NCBI GenBank assembly: GCA_963754065.1
Contig: CAVWFH010000008.1
Coordinates: 152,670-216,669 of the forward strand
Reading direction: 5' to 3'
Length of the DNA: 64,000 bases
Source: an uncultured beta proteobacterium
GTDB lineage: Bacteria > Pseudomonadota > Gammaproteobacteria > Burkholderiales > Burkholderiaceae_F
In this document: positions 18,665-35,534 of the stretch, in pieces
How positions within the stretch are numbered: position 1 is the stretch's first letter
Layout of the letters: each line of letters opens with the position of its first letter
The notes under the pieces: model-generated
The model's input: only the letters and a program-made list of their open reading frames with translations
What the model was told of the DNA's origin: nothing
Database searches by the model: none
Made by a program: the position numbers and the translations under genes

Positions 18665-18977
18665 ATTGTCTCCTATGCAGTCGGCGGCGGTGAGCGAAAT
18701 CGCGGAATCTGAAATTATCTCCGAGTGCAAAATTCACCCGGGTCGCTCGCAGGCAAGCTTCGATGGACTGAATGCGGCCAGGAGCGGTAGTTGGTCCAAC
18801 TGCGCTAAAGCGGTCAGTGAACGGGTAAATGGCCACTGAGTGGGAACGTCAGAAAGCGGCCGTCATCGACCAAGCAGCAGCGCATCTACGCCTCGACATA
18901 CCGCATCACCGTTCCCGCTCGCTAACTCGATGAGGAAATCGGCAGGAACTCAGAGTTTCCATGGGAACATCTTCGTC

Positions 18978-19943
18978 ATGAAACGGTTTGCGCAAGGCAT
19001 TCTTCTCACCTGCGCGCTCATCTGGCTGCCCGCCACCGCCCAGGCCCAGCCGTTCCCCACCGGCCCGATAAGTCTTGTGGTTCCGCTTGCCCCGGGTGAC
19101 GCTGCAGACATTGCCGCGCGCGCCCTTGGCGAAGATATCTCAAGACAACTGAAGACGCCGGTGCTCACGATCAATCGTCCGGGCGCCGGGGGCGCGGTCG
19201 GCACCAACTCCGTCGTCCAGGCCAGACGGGACGGTTACACGATTCTGTTTGCGCAAAACAGCGCGCTCACCTTTCGTGCCGTTCTCGACCCAAAATCGGT
19301 CACCTACGATGCGCTCCGGGATCTGGTGCCACTCGGCACCGCCTCACGCACGCCGACCATCCTCGTCGTGCGCAGCGACGCACCGTACAGGAACTTCGCA
19401 GAGTTCATCGATTACTCGAAGAAGAATCCGGGCCGGGTGCGTATTGGTCACCCCGGCTCCGGCTCAGTCGGTGATTTCTGCGTGCAATTGATCAACGCGC
19501 TAACAGGTTCGGAGCTCGTGCCGGTTCCCTATACCGGCGCTGCCCCCGCCATCGTCGCATTGCGCGGAGAACACATCGAGGGGGTCGTGCTGTCGCTCGG
19601 TGCGCTGAGCGCTCACATCAAGTCAGGGGCGTTCCGGGGTCTCGCCGCTTCGAGCCGATTTCCTGAGTTTGTCGACATACCCACGCTGCGCGAGCTCGGC
19701 TATCAAGAGGAACTGTTCGGCATCTGGTTCAGCTTTCTCGCGCCGGCAGGGATCCCCGAAGACGCGAGGAAAGTCCTCGTCGGCGCGATCGAACAGGCGG
19801 TCAAAGCTCCGGCGATCACGGCGAGACTGGCGTCGCTCGGCATCTTGCAGAGTTACGCCACACCCGAGCAGACCGCGGCCGAGATCCGCGCGGAGTTCAA
19901 GCGGGCAGGCGAGATAGCCAAGAAGACCGGTTTGGTCAAATGA
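18978..19943 (+). CDS. Bug-family (TctC-like) tripartite tricarboxylate transporter periplasmic binding protein
   Basis: Signal peptide MKRFAQGILLTCALIWLPATAQA followed by FPTGPISLVVPLAPGDAADIAARAL and NRPGAGGAVG, both typical of the Bug family. ATG at 18978 chosen. Confidence 0.85.
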   Translation: MKRFAQGILLTCALIWLPATAQAQPFPTGPISLVVPLAPGDAADIAARALGEDISRQLKTPVLTINRPGAGGAVGTNSVVQARRDGYTILFAQNSALTFRAVLDPKSVTYDALRDLVPLGTASRTPTILVVRSDAPYRNFAEFIDYSKKNPGRVRIGHPGSGSVGDFCVQLINALTGSELVPVPYTGAAPAIVALRGEHIEGVVLSLGALSAHIKSGAFRGLAASSRFPEFVDIPTLRELGYQEELFGIWFSFLAPAGIPEDARKVLVGAIEQAVKAPAITARLASLGILQSYATPEQTAAEIRAEFKRAGEIAKKTGLVK

Positions 19944-20092
19944 AGCTGTTCATGCAGGCGCGGAAAGAGATTCAGTGCAGCAGGCCTGCCGCGGGGGCGC
20001 GCGCATCCGGCACCACGTCGCAGACTTACCGCCGCGGCTCATATTGAACCGTTTGGCGGTCGCAGAGTGCACACTAATTCTGGAGCATCAAA

Positions 20093-20912
20093 GTGAGCAA
20101 GCCGGATCCGTATTTTCTCGGCTACCGACAGGCCGAGCAGGAACGACTGGAGCAACAATCGCACCAGCTCGCTCACGAATCAGAGTGGCTATTCGAGCAG
20201 ATTGGCGTTCGCGAGGGGTGGCGAGTGGTCGAGATCGGCTGCGGCCCGCGAGGCTGCCTCGATCTTCTCTCCAAGCGCGTCGGTGGCGCGGGAAGGGTAG
20301 TTGGGGTGGAACGAAGTACCGAGCAAGTGGAACGCGCCCGGCACTTCGTCTCCGATCAGCCAGTTGATGAACGTCGAAGTCCTTGATGCGGATGCTCGCG
20401 CCACAGCACTTCCCGAGAAGACGTTCGATCTCGCAACGGCGCGCCTGGTTCTTGTGAATGTGCCGCGACCGGAGGAGATCGTTGCGGAGATGATCCGTCT
20501 CGTGAAGCCTGGCGGCGTCATCGCCCTACATGAGCCGGATTCATCGGCGCAGCGATGCGATCCTCCTCTCGCCGCTCAGACACGTCTCTTGCAGATTCTG
20601 AACACCTATGCGGAGATGAACGGTATTGATCGATCTATCGGTCTCCGAACGCCGCGGCTGCTGCGAGAGTTGGGCCTCCTCGATGTCCGTGTGAACCCTC
20701 TGGTTCACGTGTATCCCCCAGGCCACGCACGTCGCATGCTGTTACTCGAGTTCGTCGAGAACGCGCGGAGTCGAATCTTGGAGAAGGAGCTGATTGAGGA
20801 AGCTGAGCTCGATGAACTCATGGCGGCACTAAGGCAGCACCTGGAGAATCCCTCCACACTGGTCGTCTCCTCGCTCTTCCTTCAGACGTGGGGACGGATG
20901 CCGGAGCGGTAG
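20093..20912 (+). pseudogene. Class I SAM-dependent methyltransferase; frameshifted as sequenced
   Basis: SAM motif I (VVEIGCGPRG) is in ORF 20093-20386. Motifs II/III (FDLATARLVLVNV, LVKPGGVIAL) are in ORF 20301-20912. One fold is split over two frames, with the switch near 20340-20365. Span length is 3n+1. Confidence 0.7.
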
Positions 20913-21349
20913 TCAGCGCCGCCCAGCAATGTGCTGCACTTGAAGCGGCCGAGTGGCGCTGCATCGTGGCGTGATGGCGTCAGGATTTGCTTCGGCCAGT
21001 GCTCAGCGGCCGCTAGGCCGCGCAGGTGAGCACCGAGCCGTTTAACGTCTGCTATCGGCGTCAAATTCGCGTCCGCTTTACGGCGACGCGTATGTCTGCT
21101 CGGGGTCGGGTTGTGCCGATAGGCGACTCCCGACGATAGTCACTCGATTGCCGGTTGCTTTCGGGTGCTGAAAACGCGTCGGCGGTGCGACGAACGCAAT
21201 GTCAGCAGTGGTTTGGTCTCGGTCGATGCAAGCGTCAACCTGGCAGCGGTCAAGGACTTCCGACCTCCGAGTTCTATCTAACCCGCCCGCGCAGCCACCC
21301 AGCCCCGGCAGGGTTACAGTCCGCGCGCCTGCCTCGCTTGATCCGTAGC

Positions 21350-22459
21350 TCACGACAAGTCGACAGCGATCCGGCGTGCCGGGCGATCTCGGTGGGTCGC
21401 GCTTTCGATGGCGAGGTGGCTGAAATCAGTCACGACGTCGGCGCGCTCGAGCGAACCCATGAAGGCATGCACACAGCGAACGCCGTCGGATTCATTCGGA
21501 TCTGCGTCTTTCGCCTTGAGCAATGCGCGTGGGTCGCGAAGACTCCATAGCGCGGCGGCGATCTCGACATATTGGTTCCGGTCGGGAGCCGGCGCAAAGC
21601 TGGCCATGAAGCTCTTTGCAAGATCGAGCGCCAGCATGAAGTTCCCGATCGTCCAGTCCTGGGTCAGAAGCAGCGACGCGCGCCTGACTTTCCCGGCTGG
21701 ATCGCATTCGACTTCCAGCGCGATGTCCTGCTGGAACGCACCGGGTGCAAAGGTTCGTTGTGTACGGTCGCCAGCGGCGCGTTCGTCAAGCTGCTTCAGG
21801 CGAAAGAACTTGACGAACTCGCTGTCCTTCCACGAGTCGTAGCGGATGTCGAAGTCCTGACCCCGCACCCGCGCCCACTGGCTCGGAAAGATGAAGGCGG
21901 CAAACGCGACGCGTTCGAGCTCCTGCGCGGTCACGCTCCAGCGATTTCCTTCGGGCTGGGCATCGACCCCGGCCGGATTGTTTTCCTTCGCGAGCAGCGA
22001 GCGCTCGGGCCACGGGTCGTGATAAATGAAGCGATCGCGCCCACGGTCGTAGGCCGTGATGCGGATGCAGTGCCCGGTCTTTCCGTCATGGTAGGCGAGC
22101 GGTACGTTGACTTCCCCGTTGGCCGCCTGGATCGTCTCGAGCGCCTCGATGATCTGTATTGCCTTGCAGTTCACGAGCCGCGAGATGCGCTTTGTCGAGG
22201 CAGTGGGCAATGGGCGGGCAAGAAGGCAATACGGTTCGATGCCGAAGAGCGTATGGACGAGCCAGATCTGCTCGATCGTCGCACCGCCGCCTTTGGGGTC
22301 GGCGTAGATGCCAGCGTTTTCCGGCAGGACGGCGAACTGCTCATACGCACGCTCGATGAGCCGGGCCCACTCGGGATTGTTGCGACGGGCCTGTTCGAAC
22401 ACCTCGGGCGCTGGAGTGGAAGGCATTCCGCCAAAACGCGGCTCTGCATCGTTGGACAT
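21350..22459 (-). CDS. Hypothetical protein, 369 aa; possible papain-like (C39-like) peptidase fold in the N-terminal half
   Basis: The ATG at 22459 is preceded by GAGGAGGA. A candidate Cys helix start (VNCKAIQIIEAL) is followed by GHCIRITAYDRGRDRFIYHDPWP, resembling the His...Asp-Pro block of C39-like peptidases. The fold call is weak. Divergent from the astacin-CHAT gene. Confidence 0.4.
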   Translation of the reverse strand: MSNDAEPRFGGMPSTPAPEVFEQARRNNPEWARLIERAYEQFAVLPENAGIYADPKGGGATIEQIWLVHTLFGIEPYCLLARPLPTASTKRISRLVNCKAIQIIEALETIQAANGEVNVPLAYHDGKTGHCIRITAYDRGRDRFIYHDPWPERSLLAKENNPAGVDAQPEGNRWSVTAQELERVAFAAFIFPSQWARVRGQDFDIRYDSWKDSEFVKFFRLKQLDERAAGDRTQRTFAPGAFQQDIALEVECDPAGKVRRASLLLTQDWTIGNFMLALDLAKSFMASFAPAPDRNQYVEIAAALWSLRDPRALLKAKDADPNESDGVRCVHAFMGSLERADVVTDFSHLAIESATHRDRPARRIAVDLS

Positions 22460-22670
22460 GACGCACGTCCTCCTCGGTGACCGTTGCTGAAGCGGAAGGG
22501 CGCAGGCGATTGCGCACCCTGCGGCCCCGTCCGGGGCCATTGTGGCAGCGCGTCCCTCCGGCCGGTTGAAAACGCTCTGGTTCTGCGATCGGTCAAGACG
22601 CGGAACTTGGCAGCCTGATCAAAATGGGAACATGATTTGGTGTCGACCACGCCACTGATTCACACTGCTC

Positions 22671-25367
22671 ATGTCCAAGATCGTCTGCAGGCCGAGGGCA
22701 CTCACGCCGACCCAGGCGGCAAAGGTTCTACGTCGCAGCATCGAGATCAATCCGGCCAACGCGGATGAGCAGCGCGTCCTTGCCCGTACACCGGTCGGTC
22801 GGCGCGGCGGGCCCCGGCGCCTCGCGGTCGTGATCGGACACAAGTGGCCCGAGACCGGCGTTCGGCTGACCGTACAGTTCCTCGACAGTCCATCGCGCGA
22901 CCTGCGCGCCCGCATCCTGCTGCACATGAATGCCTGGTCGAAGACCACGAACGTGCAGTTCGTGGAGACCGCAAGCGTAGGGCAGGTGCGCATTGCACGG
23001 CTCGATGAGCCCGACGACATGGCGGGCTACTGGTCGTATGTCGGAACGGAGATCCTCGGGATCGAGGAAGATCAGCCGACCTTCAACCTCGAGGGCTTCA
23101 CGATGCGCACGCCCGAGGCGGAGTTCCGACGCGTGGTGCGGCACGAGGCCGGTCACACGCTGGGATTCGAGCACGAGCACATGCGCGCCGAGCTCATCAA
23201 GAAGATCGACCGGCGCAAGGCCTTCGCGTACTTCGACCGTACCGAAGGCTGGACCGCACAGGAGACCCTCGAGCAGGTCCTGACGCCGCTCGCCAAGTCG
23301 TCGATCATGGGGACGACCGAGTCCGATCCGCACTCGGTCATGTGCTACCAGATCCCCGGCGAAATCACGAAGGACGGCAAGACCATTCCGGGCGGCAAGG
23401 ACATCACCGCCAAGGACTACGCGTTCGCCGCGACCATCTACCCGCGTGCCAGGCCTGCGCGGGACACAACGGCGACCTCGCCTGACAGCGCGACATCGGT
23501 CCCTGCGGTCTGGACGCCACCGGCCCTCGTGACGCTGCCCACCGTCCTGGCGCCGGCCTTGGACGGCGACACCTTCCACATTGTCGTCATGGATCGGTTC
23601 GAGCCCGACGTGGCGGGGTCGGCTGCGGCGGCGAGGCGGCAAAAGTACGCGCGCGTCTTCGCAACCTACGGTGGTGCCCGGGTCACCATTCCGATGCGAC
23701 TCAATACCGACAAGGGCGAAGAGCACACGCGATTCCGCGCGATCATCGACATGCATGAGCGCATCAAGGCGTACACCAACCGGGATACGGGCACGCTGCC
23801 CAACGACGCGCAGCTGATCGCCTTCGGCACGGATCTGTTCGAGACGCTCTTCCAGGGTGACGTGCGGCGCTTGTACGACGAGGCGCGCTCGCGGCAGCAC
23901 GGCCGCAAGCTCGATTTCGTCTTCACGTCGATGGTGTCGTGGATCGCGGAGAAACCCTGGGAGTTCGCCTACGACGCATCACGCCGCAGCTTCCTCGCCA
24001 CCGAAGACATCCACTTCGTCCGCAATGTTCTGACCGCCATTCCCGCCGATGTGATCCCGCCGCGCGCGGGGCCGCTGCGGATCCTGGTGGCGTCGGCCCA
24101 GCCGGCGGGTTTTGGGCGCCTCTCGGTCGAGCAGGAACTCGAAGTCATCCGACGCGGATTCGATCCGCTGATTGACGCGGGGCTGGCCGAGGTCGAGGTG
24201 CTGCCCCGCGCCACGCCGAGCAGCATCCACGCACGGCTGTCCACGGGCAGCTTCACCATCGTGCACTTCATCGGCCATGGCGTGTTCAACGACAGGACGC
24301 AGGAAGGCTCGCTGGTGTTCGAAGATGCCTCCGGCGGCGAGTACCTGCTCGGCGAACGCTCGGTGCGCGAGATCTTTTGCCAGCGTGGGGTCACGCTGGT
24401 GTTCCTGAACGCGTGCCAGACGGGCTCCGGCGGTCGCGCCGACTTCAACAAGGGCGTGGCGCAGTCGCTCGTGGCGCATGGCCTGCCGGCGCTGGTCGCC
24501 AACCAGTACAGCGTGCTGGATTCGTCGGCCACCCAGTTTGCACAGCACTTCTACTGGGCGCTGGCACAGGGAATGACGATCGGGCAGGCGTCCCGCGAAG
24601 CACGCATTGCTGTCAACTACTCGCTGCAGGGCGAGATGATCGACTGGGCGGTTCCGGTCGTGTACGCCCGCAATCCGAACATGACGCTGTCGGCTCGACC
24701 GCGGGGGCTCACCGAACCCGCTTCGACCCAGGTGCGCGCGAAGAGCCGCCGCACCCTCATGCCCCGGTCGGTCGAGGTCGGGGTCTGGGACATCGACAAC
24801 GTCTTCCCGTCTCTGAAGGACACGCTGGCACGCCTGACGGGGGCGCAGGAGCAATTCGGTTTCGATCTGGTGGATCTCTCGGCCCCGATCGATGCGTGGG
24901 ACCTTGAGCAGAGGGCCGACGACGGCACGCCGTATCTGTGGGCGGAAAAACTCGCGAAGCGGCTGGGCCGCGTGCCGCTGGAACTCCACGTGAACGTTCT
25001 GGCCTGTGTCACGCGGCACTGGATGCGCGATGACGAGACCCTCAATATCTACGGCTGGTGGCCGGAAAAGGGCGAGGGGCCCGTGGTGATCTTCTCGGTG
25101 GCCGGCTTCGATGAGCTGCCGCCGGCAGGCCCTGAAACCGACCGCGCGATTGCGAACGTGCTGGTGTCCGGCCTGGCCGGCTATCTCGGCGGGATTGACG
25201 CGCATGAGCGTGGCGCGAAGGATTGTCCGATGGCCGCCAATGACGCGCGTGACCTGAAGCACATAGTGGGGCGGCAGCTGTTCGACCGCAGTTGCCGGGC
25301 GAAGCTGGCCAAGGTGATCCCGGACAAGCTGCCGGCTCTCGACGCATTGCTGAAGGTCTTCCGCTGA
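22671..25367 (+). CDS. Astacin-like metzincin fused to a CHAT (caspase-like) protease domain, 898 aa
   Basis: Extended zinc motif HEAGHTLGFEHEH with Met-turn SVMCY (astacin/M12A style) near 23141-23330. Canonical CHAT dyad HFIGHG (about 24264-24282) and FLNACQTG (about 24409-24425). A further ~230-aa C-terminal region is unassigned. No signal peptide. Confidence 0.85.
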   Translation: MSKIVCRPRALTPTQAAKVLRRSIEINPANADEQRVLARTPVGRRGGPRRLAVVIGHKWPETGVRLTVQFLDSPSRDLRARILLHMNAWSKTTNVQFVETASVGQVRIARLDEPDDMAGYWSYVGTEILGIEEDQPTFNLEGFTMRTPEAEFRRVVRHEAGHTLGFEHEHMRAELIKKIDRRKAFAYFDRTEGWTAQETLEQVLTPLAKSSIMGTTESDPHSVMCYQIPGEITKDGKTIPGGKDITAKDYAFAATIYPRARPARDTTATSPDSATSVPAVWTPPALVTLPTVLAPALDGDTFHIVVMDRFEPDVAGSAAAARRQKYARVFATYGGARVTIPMRLNTDKGEEHTRFRAIIDMHERIKAYTNRDTGTLPNDAQLIAFGTDLFETLFQGDVRRLYDEARSRQHGRKLDFVFTSMVSWIAEKPWEFAYDASRRSFLATEDIHFVRNVLTAIPADVIPPRAGPLRILVASAQPAGFGRLSVEQELEVIRRGFDPLIDAGLAEVEVLPRATPSSIHARLSTGSFTIVHFIGHGVFNDRTQEGSLVFEDASGGEYLLGERSVREIFCQRGVTLVFLNACQTGSGGRADFNKGVAQSLVAHGLPALVANQYSVLDSSATQFAQHFYWALAQGMTIGQASREARIAVNYSLQGEMIDWAVPVVYARNPNMTLSARPRGLTEPASTQVRAKSRRTLMPRSVEVGVWDIDNVFPSLKDTLARLTGAQEQFGFDLVDLSAPIDAWDLEQRADDGTPYLWAEKLAKRLGRVPLELHVNVLACVTRHWMRDDETLNIYGWWPEKGEGPVVIFSVAGFDELPPAGPETDRAIANVLVSGLAGYLGGIDAHERGAKDCPMAANDARDLKHIVGRQLFDRSCRAKLAKVIPDKLPALDALLKVFR

Positions 25368-25383
25368 AAGCGAGGTAATGCAC

Positions 25384-26559
25384 ATGGCAACGAAATCACG
25401 ATCGAAATCCAAGGCAAGTCCCAAGGCAAGGACCAAAGCGAGGCCGATGACCAAGCCGAAAGCGAAACCGGTCGCGAAGGCAAAGGCCCGAGGCAAGCTG
25501 CCAGCAAAGCCCGCCGCGGTGCCGCGCAAGGCGTTGGCCGTCGGCGGTCCTGTCACGCTCGAAGAGGCCCGCGCACTGTCGCGCGCGCGGCAGCCGAAGC
25601 GTGCGCTGCGGCGCGCCGTAGCCGGACCTCCCGCGACCCCGGCGAGCGTCGGGGCCGAACGCGAACGCCTCGAGCAGGAACGTCGTGCCGAACGTGCGCG
25701 CCGGATGCGCGAATACACGGAGACGATGGAAATCATGAAGCGGCGCGGAGCCCGACGGTCGGGTCCGAAGCGCGCGGCGACCGGTCGGCGCCGCGCGCCG
25801 AGCGCCGCCGCATCGTTCCAGCCGCTGCAGGTGTTCGCAGAAGGCGATTCGTGGTTCGACTATCCGCCGTTTCTCATCAAGGGCGGCGTCATTCCGCGGC
25901 TCGAGAGCCGCCTCGGCGTTCCGATCCTGAACATGGCGAAAGCCGGCGACGAGGTGCGTTTCATGCTCGGAGTCGAACAGCGCATTCGTCTGGCCGAGTG
26001 CCTGACGGAGGGCTGCCCGGCCGGCGGACCGTGGGACGCGCTGCTGTTCTCCGGCGGTGGCAATGACATTGTCGACAACCCGATGGCGCTGTGGGTGCGC
26101 GACTGGAATCCGGCCGTCCCGCCGGCAACGCTCATCAATCAACCGCGTTTCGATGTGGCGCTGGCGCTGGTGCGTGCCGGCTACGAAGACCTCATTACCC
26201 TGCGGGATCAGTTGAGTCCCGGCACCCACCTCGTGTTCCACGGCTACGACTTCGCGATCCCCGATGGCCGCGGCATCTGCCATCTGGGTCCTTGGCTGAA
26301 GCCGACCTTCGACCTGAGAGGTTTTCCGACGCGCGCCTCCGCGTTCGCGGTGGTGGAAGCGATGCTGAAGCAGTTTGCAGCGATGCTGACGACGCTGACC
26401 GCGCACCCGAAGGTGACCTTCATCAACGGCCAGGGAACCCTCGCGCCGCAGCCGAGCGCCTGGCACAACGAGCTCCATCCGAACAAGGACGGATTCGAGA
26501 AGTTTGCGGACCTCTTTCACCAGGAGCTGCGCGCGATATTCCCCGGTCGCGTGCTCTAG
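25384..26559 (+). CDS. SGNH/GDSL-type hydrolase (esterase/lipase) with a ~60-aa Lys/Ala/Pro-rich N-terminal tail
   Basis: SGNH blocks are present: I AEGDSWFDY, III FSGGGNDIV, V NELHPN. N-terminus is MATKSRSKSKASPKARTKARPMTKPKAKPVAKAKARGKLPAKP. Starts 17 nt after the astacin-CHAT stop, with GAGG 8 nt upstream of the ATG at 25384. Confidence 0.85.
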   Translation: MATKSRSKSKASPKARTKARPMTKPKAKPVAKAKARGKLPAKPAAVPRKALAVGGPVTLEEARALSRARQPKRALRRAVAGPPATPASVGAERERLEQERRAERARRMREYTETMEIMKRRGARRSGPKRAATGRRRAPSAAASFQPLQVFAEGDSWFDYPPFLIKGGVIPRLESRLGVPILNMAKAGDEVRFMLGVEQRIRLAECLTEGCPAGGPWDALLFSGGGNDIVDNPMALWVRDWNPAVPPATLINQPRFDVALALVRAGYEDLITLRDQLSPGTHLVFHGYDFAIPDGRGICHLGPWLKPTFDLRGFPTRASAFAVVEAMLKQFAAMLTTLTAHPKVTFINGQGTLAPQPSAWHNELHPNKDGFEKFADLFHQELRAIFPGRVL

Positions 26560-26595
26560 CGGCCGTTGCAGAGGTCAAGGCACGCGTTGAGGCGG

Positions 26596-28053
26596 TTACC
26601 GTGACCCCAGCTTCAGGTCGGCGATGAACTTCGGCGCGTCGGACTCGAGCTTGGCGATGACCTCGTTGCGGCGGCGTGCATAGAAGTCGGAGTTGAGCGT
26701 CATGCGCTGGGCTGCGGTCCAGAAGTTCACCTGCTGCGCGCCCCACTTGAAGAAGAGAAACCGCTTCCGTTCGTCGACGCTGCGGAAGTAGAACGCCCCG
26801 GCCGCCATGGTGAGGGCACCGTTGGCCGTACGCTGCACGGCGCCCAGCTGGAAGTTGCCGCTGCCTTCCATCGAGGAGTGGAAGTCGAAGAGTTGAATCG
26901 TGCCGTCGTCTTCCGCCAGCTTGGAAAGCGCCGCCACGGATTCCTGCAGCACCGCCAGCTGGTTCTGCGTGGCGATGGCCGTAATGATCGCCAGTGCCGC
27001 CTGGTCCATGCGGAACTCGCCCTCGGTCTGGTCAAAGCGGGTGAACGCAAACTGCTCGGTCGCCCAGCCCAGGTTCTCCAGGATCTCGACGTACTTCTGA
27101 TACCAGAACTGCGATTGCGTGAAGCGGTCGAAGGCACCACTCGCCCCGCGCTGCGCCAGCTGGATGGAATAGAGGACGTCGTTCTTTTCCTGTTCGCTGA
27201 CGCCTTCGACGAAGGACATCAGGCTGCCGACATTCACCTTCGCGTCGTAGGCGGGAGCCAGTCCCGCAGCGCGTCGGCGCATCGGTGCCACCTTCCTGGC
27301 GCGCGCCTTTCGACGCGAGGGAGCAGGGCTCGGTGCAGCCACGGCGGGCGGCAACGACAGGTCCCTTATGTAGGCGCCAACGCCCAGCGGCACGACGCCG
27401 TGATCCGGCATCGTTGACTCGGGGGCTCGCCTCGGTCCCTTGCCGCGTTGCATCCTCGAGGGCAGCGCGGGCGGTTCCGGTGCGATCAGGCGACCGGCCG
27501 TGTCGAACGTCGCCTCCAGGAGGAACGCCACCTCAGGTTGTGTGTAAGCGGGGTCCCAATGCGAGTTTTCCGGAACGTGGCAGTGACCGTAGTGTCCGCT
27601 CTCGCTGTCCCAGATCCCGGGGTCCCGGTTGTGCCCGCCCGGATCGCGGCCATTGCGTGCAGGCCGGGGCAGGCCAGCGGGCCACGTCCGCGGAACACCG
27701 TGCGTGGCTTCGATCCAGCGGCACAGGCGCGCCAGATTCGTGAGCGCGCGTCGATCCTTCGGCAGGTGCGCGAAGCCCACGAGTTCGATCTGCACCGCGG
27801 AATCGCGGTTGGTCTGCACACCGCCCGCTTCATTGCGCAGAGCTCGTGCGCCTTCCGACGTATCGATGTGCTGGAAAATGTTCGTCGCATCCACGGTGAA
27901 GTGAGGATCCGAACGGTTCGAGCGAAACGCGTTCATCGCGCCTTCGGCAGAGCTCCCCTCGGTCGTGTGATGGACGATCTTGAAGGGGCCGCCAAGGTTG
28001 GGACCGCATGATCCCGAAATGGGACGCCACGTCGCAAATGGACATCGTGCCAC
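26596..28053 (-). CDS. N-acetylmuramoyl-L-alanine amidase (Amidase_2/PGRP fold) fused to an unrecognised ~250-aa C-terminal domain
   Basis: N-terminal CPFATWRPISG...FKIVHHTTEGSS...DPHFTVD...FQHID...VQIELVGFA matches the Amidase_2 pattern. GTG at 28053 chosen because GGAGG lies 5 nt upstream. No signal peptide. A basic linker (SRRKARARKVAPMRRRAAG) is followed by a domain I cannot assign. Confidence 0.75.
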   Translation of the reverse strand: MARCPFATWRPISGSCGPNLGGPFKIVHHTTEGSSAEGAMNAFRSNRSDPHFTVDATNIFQHIDTSEGARALRNEAGGVQTNRDSAVQIELVGFAHLPKDRRALTNLARLCRWIEATHGVPRTWPAGLPRPARNGRDPGGHNRDPGIWDSESGHYGHCHVPENSHWDPAYTQPEVAFLLEATFDTAGRLIAPEPPALPSRMQRGKGPRRAPESTMPDHGVVPLGVGAYIRDLSLPPAVAAPSPAPSRRKARARKVAPMRRRAAGLAPAYDAKVNVGSLMSFVEGVSEQEKNDVLYSIQLAQRGASGAFDRFTQSQFWYQKYVEILENLGWATEQFAFTRFDQTEGEFRMDQAALAIITAIATQNQLAVLQESVAALSKLAEDDGTIQLFDFHSSMEGSGNFQLGAVQRTANGALTMAAGAFYFRSVDERKRFLFFKWGAQQVNFWTAAQRMTLNSDFYARRRNEVIAKLESDAPKFIADLKLGSR

Positions 28054-28277
28054 TTTGACCTCCAGGGATTGGGACGGAGACGGCTGAGACGAGGAGTGTA
28101 TGCGCCTGCCGCTCGGTGCGCGGAAAGCGCATCGCGCGCTCCGGTCGGGATCGCACAGCATCGCGTACCGGTCCATCCATCCGCTGCCACTGCCATATCG
28201 GCGCCGTTCAGGCATCCTCTGCCTGCGGTGCCGTCCGGCCGCGCAGCCCATCCGTCCTGGCTATGTCCTGAGGTCCG

Positions 28278-28866
28278 ATGCGCGTACTGCTGTTCAGTGG
28301 CCACATGGTCGACCGACCCGATCGCAGGCTGCCGCGGTTTCCGGCGAGCCGGGTCGCGGCGGCGGGGCGTGCCATCGAATGCCGAACTCGACAGGCTCGG
28401 TGTCGGGACAGAGGATCGGGCAGTGACCAGCGGAGCAAGTGGTGGCGATCTGCTGTTTGCACTGGGCTGTCTGGCCCGTGGCGCCGCCATCGAGGTCTAC
28501 CTGCCGTTTGCGCGAGACCGCTTCGTGCAGTCATCGGTGTTGCCCGGCGGTGCTCATTGGCTGCCGATGCTGGACGAAGTGCTGGCGCACCCGCTGACCG
28601 TGCTGCACGTGATGCCACCGGCTGACGACGACGCGGAGGATGGCAACGCCTTCGCACGTTGCAACCTGGCGATGCTGCAGCGTGCGCTGAAACTGGCCCG
28701 CGGGCCGATCGACCTGGTTTGCCTGTGGGACGGCAGCGTCGGTGACGGGCCAGGCGGTACGGAGCACATGGTCAGCTCCGTGCGCGCGCGAGGAGGGCGC
28801 GTGCACTGGATCGACATCCGGACGCTGCCGGACTCAACCGACGTGCGGCTCCCCGGCCAGGTATGA
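28278..28866 (+). pseudogene. Small Rossmann-like protein, possibly SLOG/LOG-like nucleotide-binding; frameshifted as sequenced
   Basis: MRVLLFSGHMVDRPDRRLPRFPASRVAAAGRAIE (frame of 28278) continues sensibly only in the 28069 frame (AELDRLGVGTEDRAVTSGASGGDLLFAL...LWDGSVGDGPGGTEHMV). The switch is near 28370-28385. The Gly-rich GASGGD and GxGGT blocks suggest a LOG/SLOG-type fold; this assignment is an inference. Confidence 0.45.
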
Positions 28867-29890
28867 GGCAGTGAACTCGGTCAGTCCGTGGCGGCCGCCG
28901 TTGACGTAGCGGCGCGCCAGCGCGAAGTCGCGGTCCAGCAGCGCCTGCTTGATCTTCAGTTCGCGATCCTTCAGGAAGCGCGCCAGCACGCGCGCCGCGA
29001 CCAGCGGTTCGTTGGCCCGTTCCGGTTCGCGCACCAGCAGTTCACCGAGTCCGAGCGCGCGCCCGATCTGTTCGTAGTTCGCGCGGCCCGTCAACTGCAC
29101 GAAACCACGACCCTTGTAGGCGGCGCCGTCATGCGGGCCTCGGTTGCCGAGGTCGCGCCGGTGGTCGTACAGGTCAAAAAACGGCGAGCGCGCGTTCGGT
29201 GACGTGTTGTAGCGCGAGCGGTACTCGTCGAGCGGAGTGAAGCGGCCGGTTTCTGCGCAGATCGTCGCCACGGCCATCAGCAGCATCGACTTGTCGACGA
29301 GTCCGAGCTCGGTCATGGCCTCGATCACCGCGGGCAGGTAGGACTTGATATTGCCGAGCGGAGCGCCCGGGCACATGGCTGAAACGACCTGCACCGTCAG
29401 TTCCCCGGTGGACGACGGCAGGCGGTCGTCGTCCATCAGCCCGAGCGCGGTCAGCGTCCGCGGGCCGGCGACGCCGTCTGGCAGCAGGCTCTCGCTCATC
29501 TGGAAGGCGATGACCGCGGCCTCGGTGCCTTGTCCGAATTCGCCGTCGATGGTGCCGCACTTGAACCCCTTCTCCGACAGGCGGCGCTGCAGGCGCGCGA
29601 CGGCGTCGCCCGTGGCGCCGAGCCGCAGGGTGGTGAACGCCGCCAGCGGTGCGCGTGTCGCGGCACGGGGCGCGCGACGCCCGGTCGGGCGGGGTGCCGG
29701 AGGCAGTCCTTTCGGGAGCGTGTGCGGCGCGCCGACGTCGAGGCGCCGGTGTCGCCACTACGGGCGATTTCGATGCGGTCCTGCGGGCTTTCGATGGCTT
29801 GCGTGGACTGGCAATGCGCTGCTTCTTCGCGCGCGAGATAACGCCGCGCCGGGTCCGTTCACTCCTGCTTCGCTTCTTTGCTGTGGCCAT
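28834..29890 (-). pseudogene. Peptidoglycan-binding domain + GH19-like muramidase/chitinase-fold lysin, with an Arg/Lys-rich N-terminal tail; frameshifted as sequenced
   Basis: GH19 signature YKGRGFVQLTGRANYEQIG. My own translation upstream of the annotated Met (29499) gives a complete PG_binding_1 domain (GDAVARLQRRLSEKGFKCGTIDGEFGQGTEAAVIAFQMSESLLPDGVAGPRTLTALGL). That frame has no ATG/GTG/TTG before its stop at 29758-29760. The only start is the ATG at 29890 in another frame (MATAKKRSRSERTRRGVISRAKKQRIASPRKPSKARR). The switch lies somewhere in 29650-29757. Confidence 0.7.
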
Positions 29891-30030
29891 CGCAACGACT
29901 CCTCACCCGTCGAATTCCTCACCCATGAATCGATCGTGCAACGCTACAAGCGGCTGGGTTGCATGACCACCCGTCATTGCGGGACGCCACGGCGCCTATG
30001 GTTCCCTTGCAATGGCTGCCGCGGCATCCG

Positions 30031-30297
30031 TCAGTCCACGCACTCGATTCGATCCACCAGCAGCAGGTAGGAGGTCACCGTGCCGTCGCACTCGACGGCG
30101 TGACCCACGAAGCGCGTGAGCGTTGCATCGCCGTAGCTGGGTCCACCGCGCCGCCGCAACAGATAGCGCTGGTCTGCCGTCAGCAGGAACGGAGCATTGC
30201 GCTCGCTCTTGCTGCCACGCGCGAACTCGGCCTCGATGACGGTGCCGCGCAGTCCGTGCACGGCGCGAGGGGCGTTGTCGGCGTTGTCGCTCTTCAC
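30031..30297 (-). CDS. Small hypothetical protein (~88 aa), translationally coupled to the upstream C25-like gene
   Basis: The GTG at 30297 overlaps the TGA of the upstream gene (GTGA). The C-terminal part has protein-like composition (FLLTADQRYLLRRRGGPSYGDATLTRFVGHAVECDGTVTSYLLLVDRIE). The start is uncertain and the SD is weak. Confidence 0.45.
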   Translation of the reverse strand: MKSDNADNAPRAVHGLRGTVIEAEFARGSKSERNAPFLLTADQRYLLRRRGGPSYGDATLTRFVGHAVECDGTVTSYLLLVDRIECVD

Positions 30298-31823
30298 TTC
30301 TGCACGTAGACGCGGTAGCCGACCACTCGTGCAGCGGCTTCCTTCGCGACGATGGCGACACGCCCTCCGAGATCGCTCTTGCGTCGCCCCGGAAGCGCGG
30401 CAATCATCACGTGGTAGCGCTCGCACTGCATGCTCGCCTTGGCGAGCGAGCGCCGGGCCGGTAGACCACCACTGACTTCGAAAGTCATGAACCGCGCCTT
30501 GGCATCGAGCCCTACGGAACGCGCGATCGAACGCAGCGACTTTTCCACTTTACCGCTCGGCCGTTCCGTCGAGGCCCGCGATGCCGTCGGCTTGCTCTGC
30601 TGCAGCATGTCGCCCGACTGGCGCATCTTGGCGCGCCGCTCGGCCCGTGCGTAACGGCGGGCCTCAACGGGGTCGACACCGCGCGGCACGGTGGTCGGTG
30701 AGTCGCGTTCGACCGGATGGACGCTCGGGTCGCCGTAGATGCAGAACTGTGCCAGGGTCTTGAGATCGATCGGGTCCATTTCGGCCGACTGTCGCACGTA
30801 CTCCAGCCGTGCATCGAGCATCGCGCGACCGATCGAGGCGCCCTTGTGGATCTCGATCAGGAAGTACTGCGTGATCAGGTCTGCCGCGCCGTTGCCGCGC
30901 GCCGGACCATAGGCGATTGTCGTGCTGCCAAGGAAGCCATAGGCGCCCTGCGCGAGGTAGCTTTGGCAGATCGGCTCGTCGACTGCGAGCGCCACGGAGT
31001 CGTAGAGTTCGCCGCCATAGCAGCATTCGACTGCTGCGATCGTGCCTTGCGCTATCTTGCCGCGTGTGTGGCGTGTCGCCATGGCCACCGGGAACTTGCG
31101 GCGGTACTCACCGTAGAACTGCGGATCCGCCAGGCCCCCGTGGCAGTTGATGAAATGGCTCAGTCGACCCAGCGAACGGCTGCGCGCCGCGCTGCTGGGC
31201 GGCGAGATCGCGAGCGCGTCGTCGTTGCCGAAAATGTTCTCCAGGCTCTGCGCGGTCGAGTGTTTCCACAGCCGTACCGAAAGCGCGAAGCAGGGCGCGT
31301 ACTCCTTCAGCGGCCGGCAGCGGTAGTGCGTCGCGGTCGCCAGCAGCTTCAGCAGGTGCGCCGGTTCACGTGCGCCGGTCAGGTCGGGGAGGCGGGCGAC
31401 CACGCGCGTCGGGCCGATGAAATCGGCGATGTCGCGCGAGTACGCAGCGTCGCAGGCATACGGAATGTCGCTCCACGCCTTGGGATCGTCTTCCTTGTCA
31501 TCGGCATACACCGGGTTGGCCAGATCCTGATGCGGGATCACGTCGATCGAACCGAGCAGCATCAGGTAGTCGGGTTCGAGTGCGCGGAACACGCCATCGA
31601 TTGCGTCCTTGTTCTGCTTCGGATGCAGCGCATCGGTGACCACCGGAGCGTTCAGTCGCTTCATCGTGGCAACCGACGACAGGTCGACCAGTCGGGCAGC
31701 CAGCCCGCGCTTGCGGTCGGCGGCGATCAACGCGGCGACGGCGCCCATGACTTTCCGCAGGCCGGCGGCGCCGTACTTGGTGCGCAGTGCCGCCTTGTTG
31801 GTCACGATCAGCTTGTCCGTCAT
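30294..31823 (-). CDS. Clan-CD cysteine peptidase, C25 (gingipain)-like, 509 aa
   Basis: The N-terminal subdomain has the C25-typical block DYLMLLGSIDVIPHQ. Putative catalytic His (HFINCHGG) and Cys (AAVECCYGGEL) are in caspase/gingipain order. No signal peptide. ATG at 31823 (MTDKLIVTNK) preferred over 31847. Confidence 0.7.
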   Translation of the reverse strand: MTDKLIVTNKAALRTKYGAAGLRKVMGAVAALIAADRKRGLAARLVDLSSVATMKRLNAPVVTDALHPKQNKDAIDGVFRALEPDYLMLLGSIDVIPHQDLANPVYADDKEDDPKAWSDIPYACDAAYSRDIADFIGPTRVVARLPDLTGAREPAHLLKLLATATHYRCRPLKEYAPCFALSVRLWKHSTAQSLENIFGNDDALAISPPSSAARSRSLGRLSHFINCHGGLADPQFYGEYRRKFPVAMATRHTRGKIAQGTIAAVECCYGGELYDSVALAVDEPICQSYLAQGAYGFLGSTTIAYGPARGNGAADLITQYFLIEIHKGASIGRAMLDARLEYVRQSAEMDPIDLKTLAQFCIYGDPSVHPVERDSPTTVPRGVDPVEARRYARAERRAKMRQSGDMLQQSKPTASRASTERPSGKVEKSLRSIARSVGLDAKARFMTFEVSGGLPARRSLAKASMQCERYHVMIAALPGRRKSDLGGRVAIVAKEAAARVVGYRVYVQK

Positions 31824-31997
31824 CCCCTGGCCTTTGCGCAACGCCAAACCTCGGCACCATAGCGCTCGCTACGCACTTCGCAAAGTCCGGTGCCGCGTGT
31901 CGCGCCGCGAGTCCGGGCGCGCCGTCGGGCAGCGCTCATCCGCTAGACTGCGCGCCCGCGCGTCCAAGCTGACCCGATCCGACGCCGGCCACTTCCA

Positions 31998-33413
31998 ATG
32001 ACGACCGTCCGCACCCGCATCGCCCCCAGCCCGACCGGCATGCTGCACCTGGGCACTGCCCGCACGGCGCTGTTCTGCTGGGCATTCGCCCGCCATCACG
32101 GTGGCGAGTTCATCCTGCGCATCGAGGACACGGACCTCGAACGTTCGACCGAGGAAGCCGTGCAGGTCATCCTCGACAGCATGCAGTGGCTCGCCCTCGA
32201 CTACGACGAGGGCCCGGTGCGGCAGACGGGCCGGCTCGACCGATATCGCGCGGCGGTAGAGCGCCTGCTGGCCGATGGGAAGGCCTACCAGTGCTACGCG
32301 AGCAAGGCAGAACTCGAACAGCTGCGTGAGACGCAGATGGCGCGCGGCGAGAAACCGCGTTACGACGGTCGCTGGCGGCCGGAGAACGCGCGCGGCAAGA
32401 CGCCGCCGGCAGGCGTGAAGCCGGTTGTGCGCTTCCGCAATCCGGATGAAGGTGATGTCGGCTGGAACGACCTGGTCAAGGGTCCGATCGCCTTTTCCAA
32501 CACTGAACTCGACGACCTCGTGATCGCGCGCGGCGACGGCGTGCCGACCTACAACTTTGCCGTCGTGGTCGATGACATCGACATGGCGATCACACACGTG
32601 CTGCGCGGCGATGATCACGTCAACAACACGCCGCGCCAGATCAACATCTACCGCGCCTTGTTGGGCCCGGGCGCATCACTGCCGCAGTTCGGCCACCTGC
32701 CGATGATCCTCGGTCCCGACGGGCAGAAGCTGTCGAAGCGCCACGGCGCGGTGAGTGTGTTGCAGTACGACGTGGACGGATTCCTGCCCGAGGCGCTATT
32801 CAACTACCTCGCACGGCTGGGCTGGAGCCACGGCGATGCCGAGAAGTTCACGCGGGAGCAACTGGTCGAGTGGTTCGACCTCGAGCACGTCAACCGCGCG
32901 CCGGCACAGTACAACCTCGACAAGCTGCTGTGGCTGAACGGCGAGTACATGAAGGAAGCCGACAATGCGCGCCTCGCGCGGCTTGCAGCGCCGCGTATCG
33001 AAGCGCGCGGCGGAGTGCTCGCGAACGGACCGGCACTCGACCGCGTCGTCGCCCTGCTGAAGGACCGTTCGCGGACCCTGAACGAACTGGCCGACGCAGC
33101 CTTGCTGTTCTATCGCGACGTCGCGCGCGAACCGGCACTGCTCGCCGAACACCTGCAGGGTGTCAGCCGGGACGCCGTTCGGATGTTCCGCGAGCGGGCC
33201 GTTGGGTTGGTGTGGGAGCGGACTGCCATCAATGGCCTGATCAAGCAGGTTGTCGGAGAACTGAAGCTCAAGATGCCGCAGGTCGCGGTGCCGTTGCGTG
33301 TGGCCGTCACCGGCCAGACGCAGACGCCGTCGATCGATGCGGTGCTCGAACTGATTGGACGCGACACCGTGGTGACTCGGCTCGATGCCGCGCTCGAGCA
33401 GATCGTGGGGTAG
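31998..33413 (+). CDS. gltX: Glutamate--tRNA ligase
   Basis: Class I aaRS motifs: HIGH variant ([14 protein letters not shown]) and KMSKS (KLSKRHG). 471 aa, followed by a tRNA-Ala/tRNA-Glu pair as in many beta-proteobacteria. Confidence 0.95.
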
Positions 33414-33470: not shown

Positions 33471-33546
<76 letters not shown>

Positions 33547-33591
33547 AAGACCGCTTCCAAAGCCCGCTCACGCGGGCTTTGAATTGAAACG

Positions 33592-33667
33592 GTCCCCTTC
33601 GTCTAGAGGCCTAGGACACCGCCCTTTCACGGCGATAACAGGGGTTCGAATCCCCTAGGGGACGCCA
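33592..33667 (+). tRNA. tRNA-Glu (anticodon UUC)
   Basis: 76 nt, near-identical in pattern to enterobacterial tRNA-Glu (GTCCCCTTCGTCTAGAGGCCTAGGACACCGCCCTTTCACGGCG...). Anticodon loop CTTTCAC, encoded CCA. Confidence 0.95.
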
Positions 33668-33824: not shown

Positions 33825-34271
33825 TCAGCGGCGCGCGCTCTTCTCGAAGATCCACTCGTACTTCTTGCCGGCCGGTGTCTCCCACGACAGCACGAGATGC
33901 GAGCCGTTAAAGGTAAGGTCGCGCCATAAAGCTGAAGTGTCGGATAGGCGCATTTCCAGTTGGTTGCCAATGAGAGCTATGCGTACTCCGTCGTCTTTCC
34001 AGTACGCGACCGATTCGCCCGGTGCGAGTTGGCGCTTATCGGCCTTAAAGCCCATCAGCGGCACCTCAACCTTCGCGTGTCCAACCGAGTCGCTCTCGGC
34101 AGTGATCGTCATTCCCCCGCGCACCGAACGCATGTCCGTGGCTCGAATCAGAGCGTAGTCGCCCGTGAGGTCGCGCATCGTTAGTTGAGCACGTTTCGCA
34201 GGCGTCAAAGAAGGTGCGGAATCTTGAGTGACACGCCTGGCTTCTTTGTCCGTCCCGACTGTCTCGGGCAA
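33825..34271 (-). CDS. Hypothetical protein (up to 148 aa; start uncertain)
   Basis: ORF with protein-like composition (LEMRLSDTSALWRDLTFNGSHLVLSWETPAGKKYEWIFEK) in a lower-GC stretch. No motif recognised. The internal Met at 34178 is an alternative start. Confidence 0.45.
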   Translation of the reverse strand: MPETVGTDKEARRVTQDSAPSLTPAKRAQLTMRDLTGDYALIRATDMRSVRGGMTITAESDSVGHAKVEVPLMGFKADKRQLAPGESVAYWKDDGVRIALIGNQLEMRLSDTSALWRDLTFNGSHLVLSWETPAGKKYEWIFEKSARR

Positions 34272-34323
34272 TCATGGCGATTGATGTCGATCGGTGCGTC
34301 CTTGTCAGCACGCGACATCAGGT

Positions 34324-35280: not shown

Positions 35281-35502
35281 GTGCGTTCGGATCTGTTCGA
35301 AAGCCTTACACGCCGTTTGCAAATCGTTTGCCCAGATCGCTTGCCTATAGAGCGGTCGCAGGCGACCTTCCAGGTCGGCCCGCGGCCGGCATTCATCCTA
35401 GTCCTGCAAACGATGCCGGTCAGCACTGCAGGGCTTCCAAGGCACTGCGTGTTCGGGTGACCCGCAGGGATCGTGTCCAGATGTCGAGGCGTCCGCCGAG
35501 AG

Positions 35503-35534
35503 CAGAAAGAAAAAACCCGCCACATGGGCGGGTT
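35503..35534 (-). terminator. Rho-independent terminator after the PEP-CTERM gene
   Basis: On the minus strand: AACCCGCC-CATGT-GGCGGGTT followed by TTTTTTCTTTCT, 22 nt after the stop at 35556. Confidence 0.7.

Follow-up and report, generated by a model that had tools for sequence, protein, structure and literature searches.

The Cyt toxins are membrane-perforating protoxins that are activated by proteolytic trimming, and endolysins without an export signal reach the peptidoglycan through the lesions made by holins. That latent effectors can be licensed by proteolysis is well established in bacterial defense (Evans et al. 2025, PMC12642450), and a bacterial caspase-like defense protease has been described that is strictly specific for Arg at P1 and prefers small neighboring residues (Rousset et al., bioRxiv 10.1101/2024.10.24.620036). 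Here we describe three adjacent genes, lettered B, C, and D, on a 64,000-nucleotide stretch (the window) of contig CAVWFH010000008.1 from an uncultured beta proteobacterium. They encode a three-domain protease, an SGNH/GDSL hydrolase, and an amidase joined to a domain with the predicted fold of the Cyt toxins. We consider it probable, though well short of certain, that B-C-D is a horizontally spread module in which proteolysis licenses lysis of the membrane and the cell wall.

B, C, and D belong to a block of eight genes, A to H, between a split methyltransferase gene (19975-20912) and gltX (31998-33413). An earlier reading of the letters alone (the sequence-only reading) had proposed this ten-kilobase block as one protease-gated lytic system. 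The content, order, and orientation that it gave for the eight genes were confirmed, as were the host-like GC content (0.63-0.68 in the block, like the remaining window, with ~65% for the window as a whole) and the lack of mobility genes within A-H. The window also holds a TctC/Bug-family gene, and its closest relatives are betaproteobacterial metagenome-assembled genomes (MAGs). None of the eight proteins has a hydrophobic stretch above a Kyte-Doolittle value of 1.6, which agrees with the proposed absence of export signals at the resolution of a crude hydropathy scan rather than of SignalP.

Results

B is a three-domain protease found across phyla

Relatives of B were collected in a scan of one genome per species, which returned 171 proteins, and 78 loci were kept. 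All block proteins were compared with these loci by tblastn, and the neighboring open reading frames (ORFs) were clustered without prior assumptions.

B joins an astacin-type metzincin domain, a CHAT clan-CD protease domain, and a C-terminal domain of predicted archaemetzincin fold (Table 1). The first domain carries a zinc motif of the HExxHxxGFxHE type (HEAGHTLGFEHE) and a Met-turn (SVMCY) and matches the Astacin profile, the match spanning only profile positions 2-103 of 189. In the second, the CHAT profile (PF12770) scores above its cut-off and the His/Cys dyad is present. The catalytic motifs are intact in both domains and in C. Across the block, Pfam matches above the curated cut-offs were obtained for CHAT and Astacin in B, Lipase_GDSL_2 in C, Amidase_2 in D, and PG_binding_1 in F, in keeping with the astacin-CHAT fusion, SGNH esterase, amidase, and peptidoglycan-binding protein named by the sequence-only reading.

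The C-terminal domain of B gave nothing relevant in Pfam at E <= 1. Its AlphaFold2 (AF2) model has a predicted local distance difference test score (pLDDT) of 94.3, and the best Foldseek match is the archaemetzincin AmzA (2x7m, E 2.5e-6, TM-score 0.66/0.76). Because ANVLVSGLAG occupies the position of HExxH, the modeled domain is probably inactive as a protease and has a binding or regulatory function. Outside Pfam, the NCBIfam model HetF matches B weakly (E 8.6e-7, far below cut-off).

B is 55-94% identical over its full length across the 78 loci. Full-length homologues of 55-77% identity occur in Acidobacteriota, Verrucomicrobiota, Planctomycetota, Nitrospirales, Gemmatimonadota, and alpha-, beta-, and gammaproteobacteria, and such identity over 898 residues between phyla points to horizontal spread under strong constraint. 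A search for the exact B sequence found no record, and the plasmids of PLSDB contain no full-length B; M12 and CHAT proteins are separate there. In several relatives assembled from long reads (MAGs at L003, L045, L053, and L073), single-base frameshifts split B. Since frameshifts recur in these related long-read MAGs, those in the window may be assembly indels rather than real pseudogenes.

An SGNH hydrolase gene follows B and evolves with it

C has the features of an SGNH/GDSL hydrolase, with the blocks EGDSWF (25840-25857), GGGNDIV, and ELHPN; block V shows Asn/Glu where Asp is usual. It had been placed 17 nt after B, and while the adjacency stands, the gap is 10 nt, or 16 nt when counted from the MATK start of C. 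The N-terminal leader opens with a basic MATKxKSK start, continues through GPVTLEEARAL and a helical ERERL...REYKATMEIMKRRG segment, and includes (K/R)RRAP(G/S)A. This leader is conserved across phyla. The idea that it is a tag common to many effector types found no support, as a search with it found only SGNH proteins or frameshifted fragments of them.

Among the 58 informative loci, namely those with at least 1.2 kb of sequence downstream of B, a same-strand SGNH gene lies directly 3' of B in ~35, typically 10-30 nt away; the automated count was 30, and 5 further cases that overlap the end of B were added from tblastn. With two more loci in which the SGNH gene is upstream of B, the adjacency amounts to ~37 of 58. 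Pairwise identities among B homologues correlate with those among C homologues (Mantel r = 0.74, reached by 0 of 2000 permutations), and the C homologues fall into two subfamilies, each spread across several phyla. Together, the correlation and the multiphylum subfamilies indicate that B and C move between genomes together and evolve as one unit. In loci without C, the genes downstream are of unrelated housekeeping type, so that B can stand alone.

D carries a domain of predicted Cyt-toxin fold

Alignment with WP_230181232.1 of Aquabacterium sets the true start of D at the GTG codon at 28053 (MARCPF...), not at 28251. The amidase domain matches the endolysin family phrog_17214 (E 4e-13), and the NCBIfam AmpD model gave no match to it. 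The sequence-only reading had left the C-terminal part of D as a domain of unknown kind, and this ~260-aa region indeed matched nothing in Pfam at E <= 1, Bac_thur_toxin included. It was then modeled with AF2 from a 50-sequence alignment, giving a pLDDT of 71.8 and a predicted TM-score (pTM) of 0.70 with a confident core.

The top Foldseek match of this model in the PDB is the Cyt1Aa protoxin (6t14, E 1.1e-8), and a second Cyt1Aa entry, 3ron, aligns with TM 0.46/0.58. Cyt2Aa (1cby), Evf (2w3y), volvatoxin A2 (1pp0), and Cyt2Ba (2rci) follow. The E values of these matches range from 1e-8 to 1e-4, and all six have a Foldseek probability of 1.0. The order of secondary-structure elements, beta, alpha-alpha, beta, alpha-alpha, beta-beta-beta, is that of the Cyt toxins. 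As modeled, the C-terminal domain of D has a Cyt-toxin fold, and the likeness is at the level of the fold only. A gasdermin identity was considered and set aside: no gasdermin is among the 50 Foldseek matches listed, and the variable linker and short helix of D are N-terminal to the domain, unlike the arrangement in bacterial gasdermins.

D-type proteins, with an amidase and this C-terminal domain, adjoin B in 13 loci. D joins B-C in at least 7 loci outside the lineage of the window, and tight same-strand D-B-C operons are present in Panacagrimonas (L034) and in distant Burkholderiales (L044, L028, and L072).

Cyt-like proteins recur beside proteases and fused to them

A search with D residues 335-551 (numbering of the long ORF) returned 219 proteins, mostly ~260 aa long, without a Pfam domain, and 60-70% identical to the query. 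They begin with a short conserved N-terminal peptide, MSIERYIESLTL, which is followed by a variable linker. A profile of the family was run against 1.84 billion cluster representatives. With E <= 1e-3 it matched 1,449 clusters (50% identity), of which 949 also passed E <= 1e-10.

Nine genomic contexts of the family were sampled. In seven of them (L079, L080, L081, L093, L094, L097, and L101) the Cyt-like gene directly adjoins a gene for a CHAT protein, usually of CHAT-AAA_16(STAND)-TPR architecture, and at L101 the pair also stands beside DUF1156 and SNF2 genes. At L100, an amidase-fused form adjoins a Peptidase_S8 gene, so that a protease gene is next to the Cyt-like gene in eight of the nine contexts. 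In isolates of Azoarcus indigens (L095 and L096), the Cyt-like gene is followed by a gene for a 410-aa GDSL lipase, so that a cultured strain may hold the module without B or in disrupted form. The Azoarcus protein has a basic MAT... leader in place of the MSIERYI peptide, and a DDE transposase gene lies upstream of its gene. A Rhs/AHH toxin gene and an Imm11 immunity gene are next door.

Some relatives carry the Cyt-like domain in larger proteins. One from Aquabacterium sp. CECT 9606 (P0252) has the same architecture as D, and P0260 is a fusion of Trypsin_2 to the Cyt-like domain. Moreover, four proteins of 1075-1142 aa (P0274, P0294, P0329, and P0351) combine Lipase_GDSL_2, Peptidase_C14 (a caspase), Peptidase_M15_3 (a peptidoglycan peptidase), and the Cyt-like domain in one ORF. 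The SGNH domain of P0274 is specifically homologous to C (29% identity over 238 aa, E 4e-21), and its Cyt-like part, including an AYIRDLSL-like helix, is likewise specifically homologous to D (38% over 257 aa, E 1e-49). These fusions join four activities that are split here among B, C, and D, and they are the strongest evidence for joint action. Protease and candidate effector are thus kept as neighbors or as partners in one chain in distant taxa, as seen in the B-C adjacency, the D-B-C operons, the Cyt-like genes beside protease genes, and the fusions. At L102, the P0274 gene is immediately preceded by a 720-aa gene without a Pfam match (204-2366), which could encode a sensor or regulator of the fusion protein.

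A literature search returned no relevant account of astacin-CHAT proteins, of SGNH-CHAT proteins, or of Cyt-like proteins together with caspases or defense; the works that define CATASP were outside its coverage, and a name for the Cyt-like family under CATASP could not be formally excluded.

Arg-rich motifs mark candidate cleavage sites in B, C, and D

In C homologues, an Arg-rich motif lies 15-30 aa before SGNH block I, and RR[RK]?[AGS] is present in 34 of 35 homologues at conserved offsets that are specific to each subfamily. Since the regions concerned are Arg-rich overall, the evidence for the motif is this positional conservation and not statistics. The D homologues linked to B show RRR[A/T/S] ~12 residues before the Cyt-like domain, and in the standalone Cyt-like proteins linked to STAND-CHAT a P.DLQAAVD segment takes its place. 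Likewise, intact F orthologues share a C-like basic leader, MAT(A/L)KKRS, and carry RRAP (L047) or ARRA (L082) ~11-14 aa before PG_binding_1. The linkers of the fusion proteins are also Arg-rich with small residues, for example GPRRTRSGGG and ARARS.

Astacin zymogens are cut just before the first strand of the astacin domain. In B, the sequence GRRGG(P/Q)RR[L/I]A directly precedes that strand and is near-invariant in ~50 homologues of all phyla. The position and conservation of these motifs in B, C, and D suggest that they are protease cleavage sites. We also considered RRRAP of C as a Tat signal and rejected it: the motif is ~140 aa from the N terminus, the leader upstream of it is conserved at the protein level, and the putative h-region would overlap SGNH block I.

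The eight-gene block is a mosaic

The labels that the sequence-only reading gave to A (C39), H (C25), and F (GH19) all fell below the Pfam cut-offs. For A, the match to Peptidase_C39_2 (E 0.009, 17 bits against a cut-off of 24) covers the last 29 profile positions only, and inspection by eye shows a C-terminal His motif and no catalytic Cys, so that the C39-like label found no adequate support. A is present only in 9 closely related betaproteobacterial loci and, judging from this distribution, is a lineage-specific neighbor outside the conserved module. For H, the match to Peptidase_C25 (E 0.0075, 16 bits against a cut-off of 23) covers the C-terminal part of the profile only; inspection by eye finds two clan-CD-like motifs, FINCHGG and VECCYGG. 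F matches PG_binding_1 (E 5e-17) and the endolysin family phrog_181 (E 9e-35), with GH19 at a subthreshold 19 bits. It is frameshifted near 29727 by a +1 nt insertion relative to its intact orthologue at L047, and the orthologue at L082 is intact as well. The SLOG label of E also found no backing, as Pfam (E <= 1), NCBIfam, PADLOC, PHROG, and a PDB sequence search gave no match; its sole hint is an SGASGGD motif seen by eye. Pfam at E <= 1 returned nothing relevant for G, and the PDB sequence search gave nothing usable for H, A, or the 1018-aa protein described below.

G and H are closely tied to each other. The GTG start of G overlaps the stop codon of H, and G has the conserved motif GSKSE..Y(L/V)LRR.GG. 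With H as the query in a metagenome scan, G was found downstream of H in all 8 loci whose sequence extends that far, on phylogenetically diverse contigs of 45-69% GC. Apart from L082, 7 loci have H-G by itself, and in the set L082-L092 the pair usually comes without F or E. H-G could be a further module of a protease and a small effector.

E is present only in L003, L047, and L082. Among the B loci, genes E-H are found only in the closest relatives, L003 (which lacks F) and L047. At L001, L014, L046, and L050, A-B-C-D directly abut gltX with no E-H, and at L082 an H-G-F-E cassette occurs in an unrelated context. As E-H are absent beside gltX in relatives and recur at L082, they are a separate insert of ~3.6 kb. 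The comparison of loci thus describes the A-H block as a mosaic in which only B-C-D is a unit, and the proposal of the whole block as one system fails because relatives that keep A-B-C-D lack E-H. Co-occurrence across genomes, which the sequence-only reading had named as one means to judge that proposal, holds for B-C, often with D, and for H-G; A and E-H accompany B only in close relatives.

Defense-type genes flank the block

PADLOC and NCBIfam, run on all eight proteins, gave generic CHAT/metzincin matches only and recognized no system. This agrees with the earlier statement that no named system has this composition; it fits the term undescribed, yet it is not evidence for a defense function.

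In relatives, the patatin, 1018-aa, and metallo-beta-lactamase (MBL)-fold genes (Table 1) lie directly upstream of A and abut A-B-C-D. The MBL and 1018-aa genes co-localize with D-B-C at L034, L044, and L037, with the patatin gene also present at L044. The C terminus of the 1018-aa protein has caspase/CHAT-like motifs, LVLVAHTD...LLLLGCSAAD, recognized by eye only, and this group of genes is probably one of the protease-MBL modules known from Evans et al. 2025. In the window, the MBL gene and A are separated by a segment (12010-21350) of lower GC content (0.59-0.63) and lower GC3. Because it is absent between these two genes in relatives, it is read as an insertion in this genome. Besides the features listed in Table 1, the segment carries genes for a Crp-family regulator, an M48 peptidase, a DUF4256 protein, a SnoaL-like protein, and TctC.

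On the other side of the block, beyond gltX, TIR genes flank dnaE on both sides, and a PEP-CTERM protein is encoded as well. A patch of lower GC content (33825-37019) follows the genes for tRNA-Ala and tRNA-Glu (33471-33667) and, given that position, may be a tRNA-associated defense islet. Overall, the genomic context is compatible with a defense role for B-C-D.

Table 1 Features of the window in and around the A-H block, with nucleotide positions in the window or residue ranges (aa) in the protein
Feature	Position	Strand	Evidence or remark
A, ~369 aa, function unassigned by profile	21350-22459 (ORF to 22540; conserved from M28)	-	
B, 898-aa three-domain protease	22671-25367	+	Pfam, motifs, AF2/Foldseek
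B, GRRGG(P/Q)RR[L/I]A, candidate internal activation cut between R50 and L51	22800-22826	+	
B, astacin-type metzincin domain	aa ~52-260	+	Pfam Astacin 26 bits vs cut-off 22.5
B, HEAGHTLGFEH zinc motif	23142-23174	+	read in sequence
B, SVMCY Met-turn	23334-23348	+	
B, CHAT clan-CD protease domain	aa 386-663	+	Pfam CHAT E 1.9e-35, 123 bits
B, HFIGHG, CHAT His motif	24264-24281	+	
B, LNACQTG, CHAT Cys motif	24405-24425	+	
B, C-terminal archaemetzincin-fold domain without HExxH (predicted)	aa ~700-898	+	AF2 + Foldseek
C, SGNH/GDSL hydrolase with ~150-aa N-terminal leader	25384-26559 (alternative start 25378)	+	Lipase_GDSL_2 34.6 bits vs 32.9
C, GRRRAPS, candidate protease site between R139 and A140	25783-25803	+	positional conservation; 15-20 aa upstream of SGNH block I
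D, 485-aa Amidase_2 + linker + predicted Cyt-toxin-fold domain	26596-28053	-	
D, Cyt-like module: short helix + Arg-rich linker + ~215-aa alpha/beta domain	26599-27375	-	
D, PMRRRAAGLAP Arg-rich linker	27253-27285	-	candidate cut between R261 and A262 (R327 and A328 in the long ORF)
D, AYIRDLSL short helix	27352-27375	-	
D, amidase, PGRP/T7-lysozyme/AmpD-type	27550-27978	-	Amidase_2 40 bits
E, ~165-190 aa	28369-28866 (alternative start 28297)	+	separate E-F-G-H cassette
F, endolysin-like: basic N-leader (MATAKKRSRS...PRRRR) + PG_binding_1 + GH19-like domain	28834-29890	-	
G, 88-aa small protein, translationally coupled to H	30031-30297	-	GTGA start/stop overlap
H, ~510-aa putative clan-CD (C25-like) protease	30294-31847	-	
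Patatin	6498-7646	+	Patatin E 3.5e-22
1018-aa protein without Pfam match	7727-10783	+	
MBL-fold effector	10780-12009	+	PADLOC LmuA-type MBL model E 2.5e-56; also Avs1a, RTasMBL models
Hsp70-like protein	13326-14636		PADLOC PDC-M61B E 3.5e-10
Second patatin	17492-18730		
Methyltransferase, seemingly frameshift-split	19975-20367 / 20301-20912		
TIR-domain gene	34324-35322	-	
DUF2726 / restriction-endonuclease (REase)-like gene	36462-37019		
TIR-TPR gene	41384-43132	+	

Discussion

The protease-gated envelope lysis of the sequence-only reading is retained here for B-C-D, on the grounds of linkage, co-evolution, predicted fold, and fusions, and given up for the eight genes as a whole. Domain identities, motifs, genomic linkage, co-evolution, fusions, and the Cyt-like fold are what the data on B-C-D provide directly; from these we infer a scheme for the trigger, the cleavage and its sites, pore formation, and the biological role. 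A signal would activate the cytoplasmic multi-protease B, whose CHAT domain would cut after Arg in linkers flanked by small residues, at GRRR↓AP in C and MRRR↓AA in D (↓, predicted cut). The cut in C would fall between the basic/helical N-terminal leader and the SGNH esterase domain, and that in D between the amidase with its AYIRDLSL helix and the Cyt-like domain. B might also cut itself at GRRGGPRR↓LA before the astacin domain, giving a caspase-to-metzincin cascade, and F would perhaps be another substrate of the CHAT domain. Once freed, the Cyt-fold domain would open pores in the inner membrane from the cytoplasmic side. The endolysin-type amidase would thereby gain access to the peptidoglycan, as might the PG_binding-GH19 lysin F in this lineage. 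For the SGNH esterase, the substrate would be membrane lipid or some other ester; the existence of genomes with B and C only implies that its target must be accessible from the cytoplasm, most simply membrane phospholipid. The outcome would be cell lysis, most plausibly as abortive infection or altruistic cell death.

A number of observations weigh against this scheme. C is missing from ~21 of the 58 informative B loci and D from most B loci; with about a third of B loci lacking the SGNH gene and most lacking D, B may act on other substrates or alone. No STAND, TPR, SAVED, or other recognizable sensor was seen in B, and PADLOC recognized no system. The Arg-rich motif is not universal, since KRGARRPRPK replaces RRRAP in some C homologues, and Arg is frequent throughout the leader and linker regions. 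Confidence in the Cyt-like model is moderate (pLDDT 71.8, TM 0.4-0.58), and Pfam gives no Bac_thur_toxin match. In addition, the amidase of D shows, by eye, an AmpD-like His/His/Asp ligand pattern, with which a cytoplasmic substrate is possible, and B-C-D occupy a conserved chromosomal site beside gltX that is not obviously a mobile island.

Some of these points fit other explanations. It is unlikely, though worth serious thought, that B is itself the executioner, promiscuous like the PCaspase of type IV Thoeris and possibly acting via its astacin domain, with C and D as accessory or co-transferred genes. The B loci without C or D favor such a role, as do the far higher conservation of B relative to its neighbors, the near-invariant GRRGGPRR before the astacin domain, which suggests self-activation, and an earlier example of Arg-specific degradation that is indiscriminate (Rousset et al., bioRxiv 10.1101/2024.10.24.620036). 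Against this role, B and C co-evolve, C and D keep their leaders and motifs in a conserved arrangement, and an SGNH domain, a peptidoglycan hydrolase, and the Cyt-like domain are found in one chain with a caspase domain. A housekeeping or developmental role in envelope remodeling, such as AmpD-like peptidoglycan recycling, peptidoglycan de-O-acetylation, or HetF-like division control, is quite improbable. It would account for the conserved position beside gltX in this lineage, the AmpD-like zinc ligands of D, the weak HetF match of B, and the export signals not seen in the hydropathy scan. Nevertheless, horizontal transfer dominates the patchy distribution: identity across phyla is 60-70%, and within any given phylum most relatives lack the module; the amidase is fused to a domain of Cyt-toxin fold and lacks an NCBIfam AmpD match, and Cyt-like genes associate with STAND-CHAT proteins and defense-type neighbors.

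The contiguity of A-H, the C-type basic N-leader and RRAP-like motif of F, and the A-H order kept in the closest relatives (L047 and L003) could be taken to mean that all eight genes form one system, in which two clan-CD proteases gate three hydrolases. We regard this as very unlikely, given that A-B-C-D lie beside gltX without E-H in four relatives, that H-G-F-E occur elsewhere at L082 and H-G alone in seven loci, that A is confined to one lineage, and that L003 lacks F. An interbacterial or exported toxin battery that reaches competitors by some export route is highly improbable: a lipase, an amidase, and a muramidase are typical antibacterial activities, and many secretion-system cargoes likewise lack a classical signal peptide, yet no secretion-system, PAAR/VgrG, Rhs, or immunity genes stand beside the block genes in the window, no small immunity-like ORFs are conserved next to them, and the effectors share a chain or a gene neighborhood with caspase-like proteases that are intracellular. 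There is very little chance indeed that the genes are a degenerate prophage lysis cassette. The amidase of D and F do match PHROG endolysin families, and F is frameshifted; however, other phage genes are absent, PHROG gave no match to B, C, G, or H, the Cyt-like profile finds no relatives among the viral contigs of IMG/VR, and B-C-D is kept as a unit in many nonprophage contexts.

Beyond the locus itself, we advance more tentatively the possibility that the ~250-aa Cyt-fold proteins are a large unrecognized class, of at least 1,449 clusters, of protease-licensed death effectors that perforate membranes, a bacterial counterpart of the gasdermins tied by evolution or structure to the Cyt toxins of Bacillus thuringiensis and to fungal volvatoxin, with B-C-D and the single-chain fusions as a self-contained intracellular lysis machine. 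In that machine, a caspase-like protease would start a proteolytic cascade that also activates its own astacin domain and sets free a pore former along with hydrolases of lipid and cell wall, for programmed cell death or defense against phages. If the lysis scheme for B-C-D is right, the Cyt-like domain would be a new and abundant effector fold for proteolysis-gated bacterial cell death, and the combination of a pore former, a peptidoglycan hydrolase, and an SGNH esterase would be a new one. A family of insecticidal and fungal cytolysins would then be tied to self-directed bacterial immunity, as has been the case for gasdermins. Moreover, endolysin-type enzymes would be usable for suicide without a holin, a reinvention of holin-endolysin logic. 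Experiments could start directly from the single-chain fusions or from the isolate Aquabacterium sp. CECT 9606 (WP_230181232.1).

Among known systems, type IV Thoeris (TIR and PCaspase) also employs a clan-CD protease for cell death, and its Arg-P1 specificity fits motifs of the RRR↓A type. Unlike that system, the B operon contains no TIR gene, the nearest lying at a distance of ~9 kb on the far side of gltX and two tRNA genes, and a TIR gene is near D only at L044; the architecture of B also differs, and dedicated candidate substrates are encoded next to it. Type III-E Craspase, with its TPR-CHAT protease Csx29, was considered and rejected, as B has no TPR and there are no cas genes among the annotated genes around the block.

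The signal-less Amidase_2 and PG_binding_1/GH19-like enzymes resemble phage holin-endolysin systems in that they would need a membrane lesion. Here, however, there is no holin-like transmembrane protein, and a soluble Cyt-fold domain would make the lesion instead; proteolysis would set the timing, and the phage context is absent. In its predicted fold, the domain of D resembles Cyt1Aa, Cyt2Aa, and Cyt2Ba of Bacillus thuringiensis, volvatoxin A2, and Evf of Erwinia. It differs from the Cyt toxins in lacking membership of their sequence family (no Pfam match at E <= 1) and in being intracellular and paired with a dedicated cytoplasmic protease, rather than secreted or crystal-forming. Its target would be the membrane of the producer itself.

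A close likeness is to the modules described in PMC12642450. In both cases, a protease gene is tightly linked to a putative latent toxic effector; for B-C-D, a single site-specific cut would free the pore former, and the hydrolase is predicted to be a zymogen. Protease classes swap around the Cyt-like domain, where CHAT, C14, S8, and trypsin types are found, as they do in those modules, and standalone Cyt-like genes lie upstream of CHAT-STAND-TPR genes just as gasdermin and EACC1 genes do there. In contrast, the Cyt fold, SGNH hydrolases, and peptidoglycan hydrolases are not among the ten module families listed in that work, and the variable linker is N-terminal to the Cyt-like domain, whereas that of gasdermin is C-terminal. 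A STAND, TPR, or SAVED sensor is absent from B, which carries two domains of metzincin fold, one of them as modeled. Finally, B-C-D is set apart in that several effectors, a membrane perforator and wall hydrolases, appear to act together.

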